This document shows, in pieces, positions 21,652 through 31,889 of a stretch of DNA of 64,000 nucleotides. The stretch's first letter is position 1, and every line of letters starts with the position of its first letter. The stretch covers positions 99,884,001 through 99,948,000 of the forward strand of contig NC_086097.1 in NCBI RefSeq assembly GCF_963921235.1, given 5' to 3'. Below the pieces are notes generated by a model. It had not been told where the DNA came from. It did no database searches and saw nothing but the letters and a program-made list of their open reading frames with translations. Source of the stretch: Mobula hypostoma (lineage: Eukaryota). A program made the translations under genes and the position numbers.

Positions 21652-22130
21652 ACCACTAGTGCAGGGATTGACTCGTCTCCACCAGTTCTATAACCAAGTA
21701 TTATATAATGACAGATGTATGTGCAACAATTTGGTACGCCACTAGCAGATCGTGTAAGCAAGAGTTAAACAGTGACAGACATGTCTCCACCAGTAGTGTA
21801 CCCTAGTGTTATAAAGTGGCAGAACCTTCCCCACCAGTATTGTACACCTGGTTATAAAATGACAGGCTTGTCCCACCAGCGTTTGCAGTGACAATCCCAT
21901 CCCCACAAGTACCATAAACCAGTGTTATATGGTGACAGAACTGTCTCAGTCCTGGTCCCCGGTATTATGCAGTGACAGATATATTCCACCAGTATTGTGC
22001 TTGGTGTTATTCAGTGACAGGCCTGCCTCTACCAGTACCATATCCCAGTGTTATTCAGTAACAGACCTCTCCTCATCGGTTCCATAACACAGAGTTATAC
22101 AGTGACAGACCCATCCCCACCAGTACTTTC
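21652..22130 (+). repeat. Degenerate ~41-bp minisatellite
   Basis: About 11 copies resembling cccagtgttatacagtgacagacctgtccccaccagtactgta. Confidence 0.8.
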
Positions 22131-22395
22131 CCCAAATCTCATCAGAATTCACTGTATGACACCAGGGCGTAGATAGTGAACAGTGTCAGTCTTTTCCCTT
22201 GATGAGAGAGGTGAGAGGTTTAAGATAAGAGGGGAAGGACTTAAAGGGGACATGAGGTACGAGTTTTTCACATAAAGGGTGGTGGCGATATGGAATAATT
22301 GTAGAGGCATGGAGGTTTCTAACGGACAAGAGACATTTGGACACGTACATTGACAAGAATGGTTTTGAGGGATATGAGTTAAACTCAGTGAAATG

Positions 22396-22635
22396 TGTTA
22401 TGTATTTGAGTAATACTGTGAATATACCATATTGTTTGATTAAGCATTCTTTATTGTTTACATATTGCATTGCGGGTTAGATGTAAAAGTACGTAAATGG
22501 CATACGTCATCATGCCACCACATCTATATGTGCACACCTACTCTGCTTTAAGAGAAAACAAAATTAGACTTGCATTCCGGGCTCCTTTGTTTTCCTCTCA
22601 ATTAGTTTTATGTTTTGGAGTTACAAAACATAACA
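22396..22635. mobile_element. Solo LTR (240 bp) inserted in a CR1 3' UTR
   Basis: Termini TGTTATGT...ACATAACA form an 8-bp inverted repeat. 5-bp TSD aaatg at 22391-22395 and 22636-22640. Removing it restores the CR1 tail. Confidence 0.85.
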
Positions 22636-22929
22636 AAATGGGACTAGCTCAGGCAGTGACTTTGGTTGGCATGGCGTGGACAAGTTGAGCTGAAGGGCCT
22701 GTTTCTGTGCTGTATAAATCAATGACTCTAAAGTTATTCAAACTCTGGCCCCTTTCTCCACAAACACTGAGCAACCTGAGTATCCCCAGTGTTTGACACT
22801 TTATTTTAGATTTTCAGCATCTGCAGTTATTATTTCATTCCCTCTCTCCCCCATTGTGCAGAAAATACAAATGAGCATTGAAAGTACATGACACCAGGGT
22901 CCTCCCCACTAACATTGAACATGATGTGG

Positions 22930-24750
22930 CCCCTAAACCTAACCCTAACCCTAATGCCAGTCACTCATATACATCCATCAGCCCAACACTCAAACCTAAA
23001 CCTAATGTCGAAGGGGGTACACACCCCCACAAACCCTAGGCACATCCCGATTATCCCTGGCCATCGCCCCCCACACACCGTAGGCACACCACGATTAACC
23101 TGGGCCACACCACCACAAACCCAATTCACCTTGTCAGGAAGGGCAAGATCCAAGAAAGGCAAGTGTTGGACCCGGTTAATGAAGGCGTGGGCCAGATCAA
23201 AGTGGCAGGGTTGCGTGAAATTGAATATCAAGTGAGGAGATCAAAAAGCACAAGAGGGCTGATTTTCCCACTGCCCGCATACTCTCAACCTAACCTAACA
23301 GTGACACGCTCTTCATTCTCCCGGTCGACAAAATGCCAGTAAAAAAGCCCAGATGCCCAAAAGGCGAGAGAGAACCAGAAAGTTAAACCCAAGCAGGGCC
23401 CACAGAAAACAAGTCACCACTAAACTCAAGTTCAGAGACACCGAATGCCCAGTAGACACTGTCAATTTAACCCATGCAATCCCAGGCATACGGATGCCAG
23501 GTGACGATGTTTAAAAACATCATTACCCTCATAGTTACATGCCTCTCATTATCCTGGTCCATGGGAAAACACAAGACGAGCTTGATCAACTCCGGCTGGG
23601 TCGCCTCGGGGAGGGTGTCTAATGATGAAAGACCCGAAACACCCGATGATCCGAGGATGCATTACTGATGATGTGTCCCAGTGCACACCCGGTTCATTGA
23701 ACCAAGTGGTGTCGGACCACGATAATGAAAGGCATGGGCCAGATTCACCTGGCTTCACCACATGAGCCTATGCGCCATAGCACCTCATACCTCACCACTC
23801 AAAACTCTGCAGCCTTACCTCTCCCAGTCACACACATTCATCTACCAGCCCAACAGTCAAACCTAATCCTAAAGACCAAGGGGGCACACACCCCCACAAA
23901 CCCTCGGCACATCCCGATTATCATGCCACACGCCCACAAACCCGAGGCACACCCCGACTAACCCTGGCCACACCCCCACAAACCCGATTAGCTTTGTCAG
24001 GAAGGGCAAGATCCAAGAAAGGCAAGTGTTGGACCTGGTTAATGAAGGCGTGGGCCAGATCAAAGTGGCAGGGTTGCGTGAAATTGAATCTCAAGTGAGG
24101 AAATCAAAAAGCACAAGAGGGCTGATTTGCCCACTGCCCGCATACTCTCAACCTAACCCTAATGCGAGGGCACACACCCCAACAAACCCTCGGCACATCC
24201 CGATTATCATGCCACACCCCCATAAACCCTAGGCACACCCCGACTAACCCTGGCCACACCCCCACAAACCCGATGACTTTTGTCAGGAGGGGCAAGATCC
24301 AAGAAAGGCAAGTGTTGGACCTGGTTAATGAAGGCGTGGGCCCGATCAAACTGGCAGGGTTGCATGAAATTGAATCTCAAGTGAGGAGATCAAAAAGCAC
24401 AAGAGGGCTGATTTGCCCACTGCCCGCATACTCTCAACCTAACCCTAACCCTAGCCCTAATGCCAGTCACTCATGTACTTCCACCAGCCCAACACTCAAA
24501 TCTAATCTGAACGTCCAAGGGCGCACTCACCCCCACAAACCCTAGGCACACCCCGATTAACCCTGGCCACACCCCCACAAAACCGATGACCTTTGTCAGG
24601 AGGGACAAGATCTAAGAAAGGCAAGTGTTGGACCTGATTAATGAAGGCGTGGGCCAGATCAAAGTGGCAGGGTTGCATGAAATTGAATCTCAAGTGAGGA
24701 GATCAAAAAGCACAAGAGGGCTGATTTGCCCACTGCCCGCATACTCTCAA
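22930..24750. repeat. Composite tandem array: four ~165-bp cores plus C-rich ~42-bp subrepeats and CCCTAA linkers
   Basis: Core ttgtcagg...ctctcaacctaac starts at about 23131, 23994, 24280 and 24593. Confidence 0.9.
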
Positions 24751-24951
24751 CCTAACCCTAAGCCTACCCCTACCCCTAGCCCTAGCCCTAGCCCTATCCC
24801 TAGCTCTAGCCCTAGCCCTAAGCCTAACCCTAGCCCTAGCCCTAGCCCTAACCCTCACCCTAACCCTAGTCCTAGTCCTAGCCCTAGCCCTACCCCTAGC
24901 CCTAGCCCTAGCCCTAGACCTAACCCTAATCCTAAGCCTAACCCTAACCCT
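24751..24951 (+). repeat. Variant telomere-like hexamer tract (CCCTAG/CCCTAA/CCCTAC)n
   Basis: About 33 hexamers, CCCTAG dominant, canonical CCCTAA at both ends. Confidence 0.9.
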
Positions 24952-24954
24952 GTT

Positions 24955-25160
24955 ATCGATTACAGCACCGGCGACCCAGGCCCCAGGAGTTTGTACATTC
25001 TCCCTGTGACCACATGGATTCCCCCACCCCGGTGCTCTGGTTTCCTCCCACAGTCCAAAGATGTACACGTTAATAGGTTACTTGGCCACGTGGGTGTAAT
25101 TGGGTGGCATGATCTCGTTCGGCTGAAGGGACTTGTAACTGTGCCATATCTCTAAATGAG
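24955..25160 (+). mobile_element. V-SINE (HE1-like)
   Basis: ggagtttgtacattctccctgtgacc...gtttcctcccacagtccaaagatgt V-domain. Confidence 0.7.
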
Positions 25161-25202
25161 TTCCCTGGTATCTTTTTGACATCAGAATCAACCTCGTAAA
25201 AA

Positions 25203-25677
25203 GATAGAAACATAGAAAATAGGTGCAGGAGTAGGCCATTTGGCCCTTCGAGCCTGCACTGCCATTCATTACGATCGTGGCTGATTATCCAACACAGAAC
25301 CCTCTACCTGATTTCTCTCCATACCCCCTGATCCCTTTAGTCACAAGGGCCATATCTAACTCCCTCTTAAATATAGCCAGTGAACTGGCCTCAACTGTTT
25401 CCTGTGGCAGAGAATTCCACAGATTCACCGCTCTCTGTATGAAGAAGTTTTTCCTCATCTCGGTCCTAAAAGGCTTCCCCTTTATCCTCAAACTGTGACC
25501 CCTCGTCCTGGACTTCCCCAACATCGGGAACAATCTTCCTGCATCTAGCCTGTCCAATCCCTTTAGAATTTTATACGTTTCAATAAGATCCCCCCTCAAT
25601 CTTCTAAATTCCAGCGAGTATAAGCCTAGTTGATCCAGTCTTTCTTCATATGAAAGTCCAGCCATCCCAGGGATCAA
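25203..25677 (-). mobile_element. CR1 LINE 3' end (well preserved)
   Basis: Open frame LSYEERLDQLGLYSLEFRRLRGDLIETYKIL...FFIQRAVNLWNSLP and a (TTTCTATG)-type tail. Confidence 0.9.
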
Positions 25678-25744
25678 TCAATCATTATGACCTTGCGCCT
25701 TATTGTCTGTCTGCAATGTAATTTCTCTATAACTGTTGCAGTTT

Positions 25745-26051
25745 GTTGGTGCGTGGCCAAGTGGTTAAGGTGTTTGTCTAGTGATTTGAAGGTCGCTAGT
25801 TCGAGCCCTAGCTGAGCCAGCATGTGAATCCTTGAGCAAAGCACTTAACCACACATTGCTCTGCGATGACACTGGTGCCAAGCTGTACGGGTCCCAATGC
25901 CCTTCCCTTGGTCAACATTGGTGGCGTGGAGAGGGGAGACTTGCAGCATGGGCAACTGCTGGTCTTCCATATAACCTTGCCCAGGCCTGTGCCCTGGAAA
26001 CCTTCCAAGGCAGAAATCCATGGTCTTACGAGACTAACGGATGCCTATAAA
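25745..26051 (+). mobile_element. tRNA-derived SINE next to the ZFYVE1 promoter
   Basis: A box TGGCCAAGTGG and B-box-like AGTTCGAGCC. 10-bp TSD gttgcagttt at 25735-25744 and 26052-26061. Confidence 0.88.
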
Positions 26052-26200
26052 GTTGCAGTTTATTCTGCATTCTGGTACTGCTTTACTTTGTCCTGTGTGA
26101 TGAATCTGCATGCAAGATAAGATTTTCACAGCAGCTCGGTTCGTGTAGCCCGGTGGAATGTAGTTACACAAATTCTACCTCCTGCCCTCCCCGGTTGTGG

Positions 26201-26221
26201 ACTACACCTCCCAGAAATCCC
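26201..26221 (+). promoter_or_regulatory. ZNF143/THAP11-type SBS motif
   Basis: ACTACACCTCCCAGAAATCCC fits the ACTACAnnTCCCA core. A weaker reverse-strand ACTACATTCC copy lies at about 26154-26164. Confidence 0.7.
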
Positions 26222-26334
26222 CGCGCGCCCAGTACTCTATGGCGGCTCAGCGGATCTCACGGCTCGCCGTACCGTCGCGCAGGCGCAGAATCGGCGGGCG
26301 AGAACGGGTCTGTCCGCTGAACGCTGCGGAGAGA

Positions 26335-26799
26335 ATGAGTGGCCAGGACTCCCCGGACGGGCCTGATGGAGGCCCGGAGCCGGCGTCCGGCCTGAGATGT
26401 CAGGAGAGCTACGCGTGTAGCGGCTCAGAGGCAGCCTTTGAGTGCGATGAGTGCGGCAGCTTGCAGTGCGCCCGCTGTGAGCGGCAACTCCACGCCCAGG
26501 CGCGCTTCGCCGAGCACGAACGGAGGCGCCTGCAGCCGGGCCACGTCCCTTACTGTGACCAGTGTCGCAGTTCGGCCTCGGGGCCCGCTCCCTCCGCCCG
26601 GCCCAGGGCCTGCGCCCGCTGCCAGAGCTGCCAGCTCAACTTGTGTGTCGATTGCCAGCGCCGCAGCCACGCAAACCGGCGCAAGCACCCGCTGCTCATC
26701 TACCCCCCGCCGCCCGAGGCCGGCCTCAGCCCCGAGGAGCAGCAGCCGATCGAGGTTACCAACAGTTTCTTGCTGGTCGACGAGAAGGAGGAGATCCGG
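26335..26799 (+). CDS. ZFYVE1: ZFYVE1/DFCP1 coding exon 1 (N-terminal Cys/His zinc-binding region)
   Basis: Translates MSGQDSP...LRCQESYACSGSEAAFECDECGSLQCARCERQLH...PGHVPYCDQC...SFLLVDEKEEIR, matching the vertebrate ZFYVE1 N-terminus. ATG at 26335 has A at -3. Donor CGG|gtaaag at 26800, phase 0. Confidence 0.95.
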
Positions 26800-31121: not shown

Positions 31122-31889
31122 ACATAAATAACTAGGTAATAGTAATGTGGAATTCAGAGTGTCAGAGGATAGAAGTACATAAATAACTAGGTAATAGTAA
31201 TGTGGAATTCAGAGTGTCAGAGGATAGAAGTACATAAATAACTAGGTAATAGTAATGTGGAATTCAGAGTGTCAGAGGATAGAAGTACATAAATAACTAA
31301 GTAATAGTAATGTGGAATTCAGAGTGTCAGAGGATAGAAGTACATAAATAACTAGGTAATAGTAATGTGGAATTCAGAGTGTCAGAGGATAGAAGTACAT
31401 AAATAACTAGGTAATAGTAATGTGGAATTCAGAGTGTCAGAGGATAGAAGTACATAAATAACTAGGTAATAGTAATGTGGAATTCAGAGTGTCAGAGGAT
31501 AGAAGTACATAAATAACTAGGTAATAGTAATGTGGAATTCAGAGTGTCAGAGGATAGAAGTACATAAATAACTAGGTAATAGTAATGTGGAATTCAGAGT
31601 GTCAGAGGATAGAAGTACATAAATAACTAGGTAATAGTAATGTGGAATTCAGAGTGTCAGAGGATAGAAGTACATAAATAACTAGGTAATAGTAATGTGG
31701 AATTCAGAGTGTCAGAGGATAGAAGTACATAAATAACTAGGTAATAGTAATGTGGAATTCAGAGTGTCAGAGGATAGAAGTACATAAATAACTAGGTAAT
31801 AGTAATGTGGAATTCAGAGTGTCAGAGGATAGAAGTACATAAATAACTAGGTAATAGTAATGTGGAATTCAGAGTGTCAGAGGATAGAA
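31122..31889 (+). repeat. 55-bp minisatellite, ~14 near-identical copies
   Basis: Unit acataaataactaggtaatagtaatgtggaattcagagtgtcagaggatagaagt. One internal substitution seen (ctaag, about 31299). Confidence 0.97.

Follow-up and report, generated by a model that had tools for sequence, protein, structure and literature searches.

Here we describe a repeat array from the ray Mobula hypostoma, located in a 64,000-nucleotide stretch of its genome (contig NC_086097.1, positions 99,884,001 to 99,948,000; hereafter the window, in whose numbering all coordinates are given), and identify within the array's complete 863-bp unit the 3' end of a HERO-like retrotransposon of the group that encodes a reverse transcriptase (RT) and a restriction-like endonuclease (RT-REL). 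This segment is predicted to adopt a fold like that of a hammerhead ribozyme, with its parts in a different circular order from hammerhead types I-III, and the units around it, whose right end is fixed and whose left ends are scattered, are joined through telomere-type repeats. We interpret the array as stacked insertions of a non-autonomous, retrozyme-like ray element that targets telomere-type repeats, a whole account to which we assign a probability of about 0.6. The window copy itself is internal and adjoins the ZFYVE1 gene.

An abundant 863-bp unit

The array consists of one full unit (23296-24158) and three 5'-truncated units (Table 1). Their cores start at exactly 23131, 23994, 24280 and 24593, are 95.2-97.6% identical to one another (165 bases aligned), and have no further occurrence within the 64-kb window. 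C-rich subrepeats of 40-44 bp lie ahead of each core and a hexamer tract occupies 24751-24951, both delimited with Tandem Repeats Finder (TRF). A preliminary description, made from the DNA letters alone, had reported the four highly similar cores of ~165 bp with their subrepeats and hexamer tract, and was accurate in this. The tract is mostly variant repeat, since six-base steps read across it give CCCTAG in 14 of 34 and CCCTAA in 6 of 34. Repeat-family analysis yielded a core-to-core spacing of 863 bp in the window.

The 863-bp unit is abundant in related species. Among 24 public runs listed, 20 contain part of 22955-24740 and none contains half of it; four were aligned to 22600-23990, and all four, which carry four organism codes, cover parts of the stretch. 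In run X1 (organism A, DNA by our guess), the summed contig depth, which marks an abundant repeat and is not a copy number, is 0.58-1.38 million over 23164-23821, compared with 0.21-0.35 million on the flanking long interspersed nuclear element (LINE) tail and 0 at 22882-22928; this last stretch, in the left flank, is without cover in all four runs. Contig 17 of run X14 (organism G), 947 bases long, spans 23128-23990 with a self-overlap of 84 bases; a joint leading from 23988 to 23132 was found in both X1 and X12. The self-overlapping contig and this joint together indicate that the unit is 863 bp long and arranged head to tail or as a circle.

We found no RT frame within the 863-bp unit and no RT-REL remnant in the window itself. 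Retrozymes have a ribozyme in each non-coding tandem unit; in the window only one of the four copies is long enough to contain the module described below. Among the origins first suggested for the array was an undescribed mobile satellite, and this suggestion, in telomere-associated form, is upheld by the abundance of the unit, its head-to-tail arrangement and the joining of telomeric repeats to many of its internal positions.

The unit contains the 3' end of an RT-REL retrotransposon

Homology identifies 23562-23713, in the spacer of a region initially thought to be without any transposon hallmark, as the 3' end of a HERO-like (RT-REL) retrotransposon. A pattern search with the module stretch recovered 15 contigs in a metagenome collection, and all 15 loci are 77-88% identical to the window over the module only. 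The module lies downstream of same-strand RT-REL coding sequence in 8 of the 15; three others have fewer than 35 bases upstream, and four retain the last codons only. Frames of the carriers contain an RVT_1 domain (Pfam, E 2.5e-12 and 2.1e-18) together with C2H2 finger, CCHC, RPD and ELTVPWEE motifs, and their best relative among solved structures is the R2 protein (E 6.6e-25). Three loci (L003, L006 and L011) display the organization that defines the HERO clade, one open reading frame (ORF) in which RT is followed by CCHC and a restriction-like endonuclease. Protein relatives (172, with 120 listed) come from many teleosts and Branchiostoma. One of them, Tetraodon protein AAN12398.1, which clusters with BAC82599.1, is 60% identical to a carrier over the C-terminal 327 amino acids; we take these accessions to be Zebulon/HEROTn, and the HERO label of the carriers rests on that assumption.

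A covariance model with the window sequence in its training set matches 23564-23712. Contigs from X12 and X14 match 23583-23685 and then diverge, and both runs contain HERO-type 3' ends as loose ends. The fish-type copies stop just past the last hairpin of the module with the whole motif uncut, except L011, in which the end of the ORF is followed by the module and then by the start of the same ORF. This 3,788-base contig (L011:1-3538) begins inside the RT-REL ORF and ends in its start, and a 3,693-base contig holds in complete form a protein with 100% identity across the 327 residues searched; the arrangement of L011 fits a circular or tandem unit of ~3.7 kb.

The ORF stop (window 23583-23588; L002-L014) falls within the self-complementary UGAUCA loop of a covarying hairpin, possibly a kissing-loop dimer site. 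In the window, a 23-bp inverted repeat encloses exactly the LINE-derived module, and a diverged form of its right arm also occurs inside every core. A protein-based, pattern-free search of prokaryote genome contigs gave six loci, of which two are short eukaryote-like fragments without the module and four are weak bacterial matches. Short contigs in bacterial assemblies (L016 and L017) hold fish-type RT-REL pieces 62-68% identical to the Tetraodon protein and are likely contamination.

A predicted hammerhead-like fold with an open block

Comparison of 16 sequences (the window and the 15 loci) makes it very probable that the module forms a retrotransposon-derived hammerhead-like fold. Two segments were dictated by the search pattern, GUC together with the beginning of stem I and GACCC-GAAA together with stem III, and their columns therefore do not count as evidence. 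The hammerhead core CUGANGA, GAAA and UH stands in register with stems I and III (U16.1-A15.1), and the parts follow one another in the order S-G-C across the 16 sequences. Outside the search pattern, CUGA and G8 are present in 16/16 and A9 in 14/16, and N7 is variable, being U, A or C in the 16 and G in a loose end of X14. Stem I is paired at positions 1-5 in all 80 cells, with pair 2 occurring as G-C, A-U and G-U, and at position 6 in 12/16, as U-A or A-U. Block S has pattern-independent support: nine of the 120 listed proteins, which were found without the DNA pattern, read through the 5' half of the module in a shifted frame and end in GV, as its GUC-stop sequence predicts.

An interaction helix of six pairs joins the far sides of stems I and II; 92% of its cells are paired and two of the six pairs show two-sided changes. 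It meets stem III through a 3-nt bulge and GA in 15/16 sequences, with GA opposite in 12 of the 15 that hold the facing strand. The kink-turn consensus is a 3-nt bulge followed by tandem G-A/A-G between two helices, and we read this element as a putative kink-turn that joins stem III to the interaction helix, the bend itself being predicted. Stem II, formed by GACCC and an upstream GGGUC, is paired in 75/75 cells, two of them G-U, with no two-sided change. Whereas the hammerhead rule places stem II within 1-2 nt of A9, the strand after A9 here covaries with a far-upstream strand, with which it forms the closing helix (two-sided change in 5/10 pairs in the unfitted alignment and 6/10 in the fitted one). 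The modelled topology would be a circular permutation of the type-SGC hammerhead, opened between A9 and G10.1, in which a four-way junction replaces the base of stem II.

Over the whole model, 93.1% of 547 cells are paired, compared with 33-44% in slid controls, and two-sided change occurs in 13 of 40 pairs, compared with 6.1 +/- 1.7 in shuffles (0/500). The ray copy has compensated changes of its own in stem I and the interaction helix, and its core is intact. Rfam models of hammerhead types I-III gave no match at gathering score in the window or in the five loci (of 15) scanned. We lean towards the module being self-cleaving.

Table 1. Features of the array and of the predicted RNA module. 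All features are on the + strand.
Feature	Coordinates	Strand	Basis
Left cap, ~4 telomere-type repeats (C-rich strand)	22931..22954	+	sequence
Unit u1, 5'-truncated: A block, C-rich subrepeats, core 23131-23295; ends at internal CCTAACC 23289-23295	22955..23295	+	
Full-length monomer (863 bp) with spacer, RNA module of retrotransposon origin, tail, A block, subrepeats and core 23994-24158	23296..24158	+	
23-bp inverted repeat (2 mismatches) flanking the module: left arm 23538-23560, right arm 23714-23736		+	
RT-REL 3' end by homology: last codons, stop-codon homologue 23583-23585, hammerhead-like module, terminal hairpin	23562..23713	+	
5' strand of predicted closing helix, with 23672-23680 (immediately 3' of A9) as partner; three additional A here	23562..23573	+	
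5' strand of predicted stem II, not attached to A9; partner strand 23631-23635	23598..23602	+	
Predicted interaction helix, 5' strand 23604-23609 (pairs with 23651-23656); kink-turn GA strand 23610-23612	23604..23612	+	
Predicted block S: stem III 23613-23618, C17 23619, scissile bond between 23619 and 23620, stem I 23620-23624	23613..23624	+	
Predicted block G: stem II 3' strand 23631-23635, GAAA 23636-23639, stem III 23640-23644		+	
Predicted kink-turn bulge 23645-23647, GA 23648-23649, interaction helix 3' strand 23651-23656	within 23631..23656	+	
Predicted stem I 3' strand 23660-23664, CUGAUGA 23665-23671, closing helix 3' strand 23672-23680	23660..23680	+	
Unit u3, 5'-truncated: subrepeats, core 24280-24444; preceded by CCTAACCCTAA at 24152-24162	24163..24444	+	
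Unit u4, 5'-truncated: A block, one subrepeat set, core 24593-24757	24461..24757	+	
Telomeric and variant hexamer tract, 200 bp, adjoining a SINE (short interspersed nuclear element) from 24952	24751..24951	+	TRF, sequence

Telomeric repeats join a fixed right end to scattered left ends

The cores had been described as ending in CCTAAC(CCTAA) units. This holds for the three outer core ends, which pass into the perfect telomeric repeat CCTAACCCTAA with the switch at the same base in 3/3, and fails for the first, internal one, where an imperfect CCTAACCTAAC is followed by spacer and CCTAACC leaves the telomeric register. About four telomere-type repeats at 24438-24460 directly precede unit u4, whose left end is that of u1.

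In X1, five joints depart from 23295 with telomeric letters in between. Among the rows listed for this run (a further 106 joints and 89 insert rows exist), 9 of 15 joints and 6 of 12 insert rows run inward from telomeric sequence (22951-22958, or 23295 plus telomeric letters). These reach 13 different internal unit positions, four of which lie upstream of the predicted cut, and the left cap at 22931..22954 is linked to eight different internal positions.

A fixed 3' end with scattered 5' ends is the signature of target-primed reverse transcription in elements without long terminal repeats (non-LTR elements). The fixed right end and scattered, telomere-capped left ends of the ray unit match the pattern of telomere-primed, 5'-truncated retro-insertions, and the polarity of the junctions points to the G-rich strand as primer and the + strand as RNA. 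We consider RNA-mediated telomere priming probable. DNA-level duplication has also shaped the array, as u1 and u4 have the same left end and the same A-block variant.

At the left telomere-to-unit junctions at 22955, 24163 and 24461, CCCTAA is followed by TGC in all three. The TGC at 24163 is not part of the unit, and joints in X1 also leave 1-4 letters past the repeat (22955-22958) to different sites. The junction TGC possibly represents bases copied from just past the telomerase RNA template, which would predict UGC after the template of the ray.

Proposed mechanism

We propose that multimeric + strand transcripts would be cut between 23619 and 23620, leaving products held by four helices across the cut (closing helix, stem II, interaction helix and stem III, ~27 bp), and that ends clamped in this way would favour joining into a circle. 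A G-rich telomeric 3' end, supplied by a HERO-type endonuclease nick or as a free overhang, would anneal to CCUAACC at the core end and prime reverse transcription leftwards by a HERO-type protein. Copying would halt at scattered points, and may cross the ligated site and circle more than once; stops upstream of the predicted cut (4 of 13) imply a template that is uncut or rejoined. Telomeric repeats would be added after each stop, and the next round would start there. For the autonomous fish elements, a module at the 3' end would explain both the whole uncut ends and the run-on into the next copy. Cleavage, the circular RNA, the location at chromosome ends and the partner protein are predictions of this mechanism. 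A more far-reaching version, in which an active hammerhead of new topology underlies fish HERO LINEs with circular RNA and a ray element that alternates with telomerase at TTAGGG ends, is tentative, and we would sooner bet against it than for it.

Several observations weigh against the account of stacked telomere-targeting insertions or against its ribozyme. All telomere-to-internal joints come from the single run X1, with short sides of 20-28 letters, and u1 and u4 have a common left end together with an A-block variant unlike that of the monomer (71% vs 86%). Inspection by eye revealed no target-site duplication, no autonomous ray element with the 23716-24158 tail was found, and the priming site lies ~440 nt past the point at which fish HERO-like copies end. 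Because the model was derived from 16 sequences that are themselves related, its standing against the controls is inflated; stems II and III are nearly without two-sided change, with half of each fixed by the search pattern. Nested-only folding, which covers neither pseudoknots nor kink-turns, favours for the window copy a competing 10-bp hairpin that buries the core, and among 12 full-length sequences renders the closing helix dominant in eight and the interaction helix and stem III both dominant in only two; the closing helix of the window copy also has three extra A. According to excerpts of Eckert et al. 2023 (PMC10085705; here and throughout, statements about cited papers refer to excerpts of them), at most 1-2 nt separate CUGAnGA from its stems in every hammerhead known. 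A helix junction between A9 and stem II may therefore be unfit for catalysis.

The rival that survives best, though we regard it as unlikely, is amplification through DNA only. A satellite would have been born once from a dead LINE end, with the ribozyme-like module a relic; telomeric 3' ends would invade satellite or DNA circles at the 7-bp CCTAACC, recombination would copy from there and telomerase would cap the stops, in a manner that recalls the Y' elements of yeast. This route predicts the same fixed right end and scattered left ends, accommodates the junction common to u1 and u4, fits the self-overlapping contig equally well as a tandem array or a DNA circle, and agrees with the misfolding of the window copy in nested models. 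However, the ray family keeps the whole core, and its own compensated changes replace G-C by A-U in stem I and by C-G in the interaction helix. At the three module variant sites listed, the letters of the window recur in contigs from organisms G and I. The ray-specific compensated changes, the intact core and the cross-organism letters together suggest that, once the unit existed, its RNA fold was under selection. Seven base pairs are also short for recombination.

An RNA-mobile element whose module does not cut, with the hammerhead-derived fold kept as a binding site for the LINE protein or as a protector of the 3' end, likewise appears improbable. Fish copies ending with the whole motif uncut speak for it, as do the truncation points upstream of the predicted cut, although a religated circle would also yield uncut copies. 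The break between A9 and stem II is without tested precedent in the excerpts of PMC10085705, and cleavage was seen in only one of nine vertebrate retrozyme dimers tested (bioRxiv 10.64898/2026.07.22.740005). What argues against loss of cutting is the conservation pattern itself: outside the search pattern the core is kept exactly while U, A, C and G all occur at the free N7, as catalysis would lead one to expect.

We give very little credence to a plain type-SGC hammerhead, in which the strand after CUGANGA would pair with GACCC and the closing helix would be an alternative inactive state. Such pairing needs one extra U and one U-C mismatch. A descriptor of this kind, written after the motif had been seen, has one match in both window strands and none in 12.0 Mb of simulated sequence, and the two strand pairs are near-copies of each other that could exchange. 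By contrast, across the alignment this stem is paired in 72% of cells, with its second pair in 0/15 and no two-sided change, and the same strand covaries with the far-upstream strand.

A displaced ribosomal DNA (rDNA) intergenic spacer, offered earlier on the strength of two short motifs at 23302 and 23323, can be set aside: the window has no rRNA family, another origin of the region is supported, and the motifs, both chosen after the fact, occur near chance level. The Sal-box-like GGTCGAC is found five times in the window (one site on both strands) with 1.46 expected, a count of five being reached in 1 of 100 shuffles, and the pre-rRNA-start-like TGACACGCT is found once, as in 10 of 100 shuffles.

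Comparison with known ribozymes and retroelements

Cleavage has been shown for type-SGC hammerheads in which an interaction helix accompanies a stem I-II linker of ~3 nt (Eckert et al. 2023, PMC10085705). The module has in common with them the S-G-C order, the interaction helix and all core nucleotides, with a stem I-II linker of 1-6 nt beyond paired bases where 3 is typical of SGC. It differs in being continuous, through the kink-turn, between the interaction helix and stem III, where SGC has open ends, and in having block C open between A9 and G10.1 and closed by an extra helix and hairpin. In hammerhead types I-III, by contrast, the circular order is C-G-S. Published SGC RNAs come from metatranscriptomes, with none in the genome of a known organism, whereas the module resides in animal retroelements and its cleavage is predicted; the CUGAnGA block was assumed to be indivisible, which would be why pattern searches missed the module (PMC10085705). 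For hammerheads, only short core insertions are listed in excerpts of PMC3088659. PMC13725137 cites Weinberg et al. 2015 for hammerheads with additional helices, and these may affect how novel the opening at A9 is. Excerpts of PMC10162972, PMC13580325, PMC7650587, PMC5678591 and PMC2684134 contain nothing bearing on novelty.

Non-LTR retrozymes are non-coding tandem units with one hammerhead each, for which a circular RNA and rolling-circle copying are proposed (PMC7229834); the ray element may be built in the same way, and its 863 bp fall within the 51-972 bp reported for vertebrate retrozymes (PMC7229834; bioRxiv 10.64898/2026.07.22.740005). In excerpts of this literature, retrozymes have type I hammerheads and a Penelope-like origin; the ray unit has instead a non-circular permutation derived from an RT-REL LINE, and a telomeric priming site.

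Terminons are 5'-truncated by short telomeric repeats and form head-to-tail arrays (PMC6431247). With Athena, Coprina and Terminons, which are Penelope-like elements deficient in endonuclease, the ray array has in common head-to-tail 5'-truncated copies, telomeric spacers, a fixed 3' end with a reverse-complement telomeric stretch, a hammerhead motif and polarity (PMC8557442, PMC6431247). In excerpts of these papers, however, the hammerhead adjoins the telomeric stretch, while the module lies ~480 nt from the priming site, and an RT of Penelope-like elements is encoded, while the ray unit is without RT and the kin of its module are RT-REL LINEs. The ray element thus appears to be a member neither of the non-LTR retrozymes nor of the telomere-attaching Penelope-like elements, although it would work like both, because its ribozyme is not type I, its source is an RT-REL LINE and it encodes no RT.

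The carriers agree with the HERO clade in having a single ORF with N-terminal C2H2, RT, CCHC and PD-(D/E)xK-type motifs; members of that clade are mostly non-specific, some being microsatellite-specific, and not telomere-specific in the excerpts of PMC4640811 and PMC3636483. The ray unit, by contrast, is non-coding. Zebulon is said to occur in partial tandem arrays. The likeness to MoTeR1 and MoTeR2 of Magnaporthe and TRAS of Bombyx is one of general description, not of sequence comparison: in these elements a C-rich telomeric repeat reportedly comes after a fixed 3' end, copies are 5'-truncated and stacked in tandem, and MoTeR2 is said to be a non-autonomous partner. We know of no hammerhead in fungal MoTeR or insect TRAS. 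In the literature searched, which did not include Repbase and Dfam, we found no report of this combination, of any ribozyme in HERO or of a hammerhead in HERO or Zebulon; permuted hammerheads in animal genomes and ray retroelements that target telomeres were likewise absent.

Other candidates and neighbouring features

Hairpins can be drawn in the core, as had been proposed; as a structured RNA the core was rejected, since it folds no better than shuffles (z 0.89 and -0.09 on the two strands). It was also rejected as a protein: among the changes in its 55-codon frame 13 are non-synonymous, with a stop among them, and 0 synonymous, and the frame matches no Pfam family. Among 1.84 billion protein representatives this frame has one match, a Hypanus sabinus gene model that begins with the repeat (XP_059825242.1, GnRH II receptor-like). 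Its first 40 residues are a translation of the repeat core at 75% identity; the first exon is probably misannotated, and the match suggests that a further ray has dispersed copies. A telomerase RNA fragment, rRNA or known ribozyme family was rejected on six chance-level Rfam matches in 22000-26400, none at gathering score, and two DNA patterns and one protein gave no match in viral contigs.

The ORF at 26335-26799, ~1.4 kb from the hexamer tract, is 100% identical to the N-terminus of the Mobula hypostoma ZFYVE1 protein; an ESM Atlas search with this gene's exon gave only B-box leads. The SINE at 24952-25140 is without its first ~30 bases and an internal piece when compared with other copies in the window, and a break within it may be where the tract was added. 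Elsewhere in the window, minimal Penelope-type hammerhead-like motifs occur in common ray repeats at 2033 (-), 20136 (-) and ~21560 (decayed, identified by eye), and 31122-31889 is a 14-copy tandem array of a 55-bp unit, 99% alike.

Implications

The combination described here varies known kinds, and there is a real chance that its ribozyme topology is new. If the module cuts, a stated rule of hammerhead architecture would be broken, and it would be the first non-circularly permuted hammerhead in an animal genome within the literature searched. Its kink-turn would also offer an answer to how the interaction helix reaches stem III, a puzzle left by Eckert et al. (PMC10085705). The motif may be widespread and unseen, because standard ribozyme scans miss it, as the lack of an Rfam hit illustrates. 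Cutting would further bring hammerheads into the R2 group of LINEs, of which R2 itself has ribozymes like that of hepatitis delta virus (HDV), and would suggest that a circular RNA stage accounts for the partial tandem copies of these LINEs. For rays, an active module would point to a retroelement that targets telomere repeats in a vertebrate, and, under the more far-reaching version given above, the ray element would be a counterpart to Terminons or MoTeR in vertebrates, assembled from other components.

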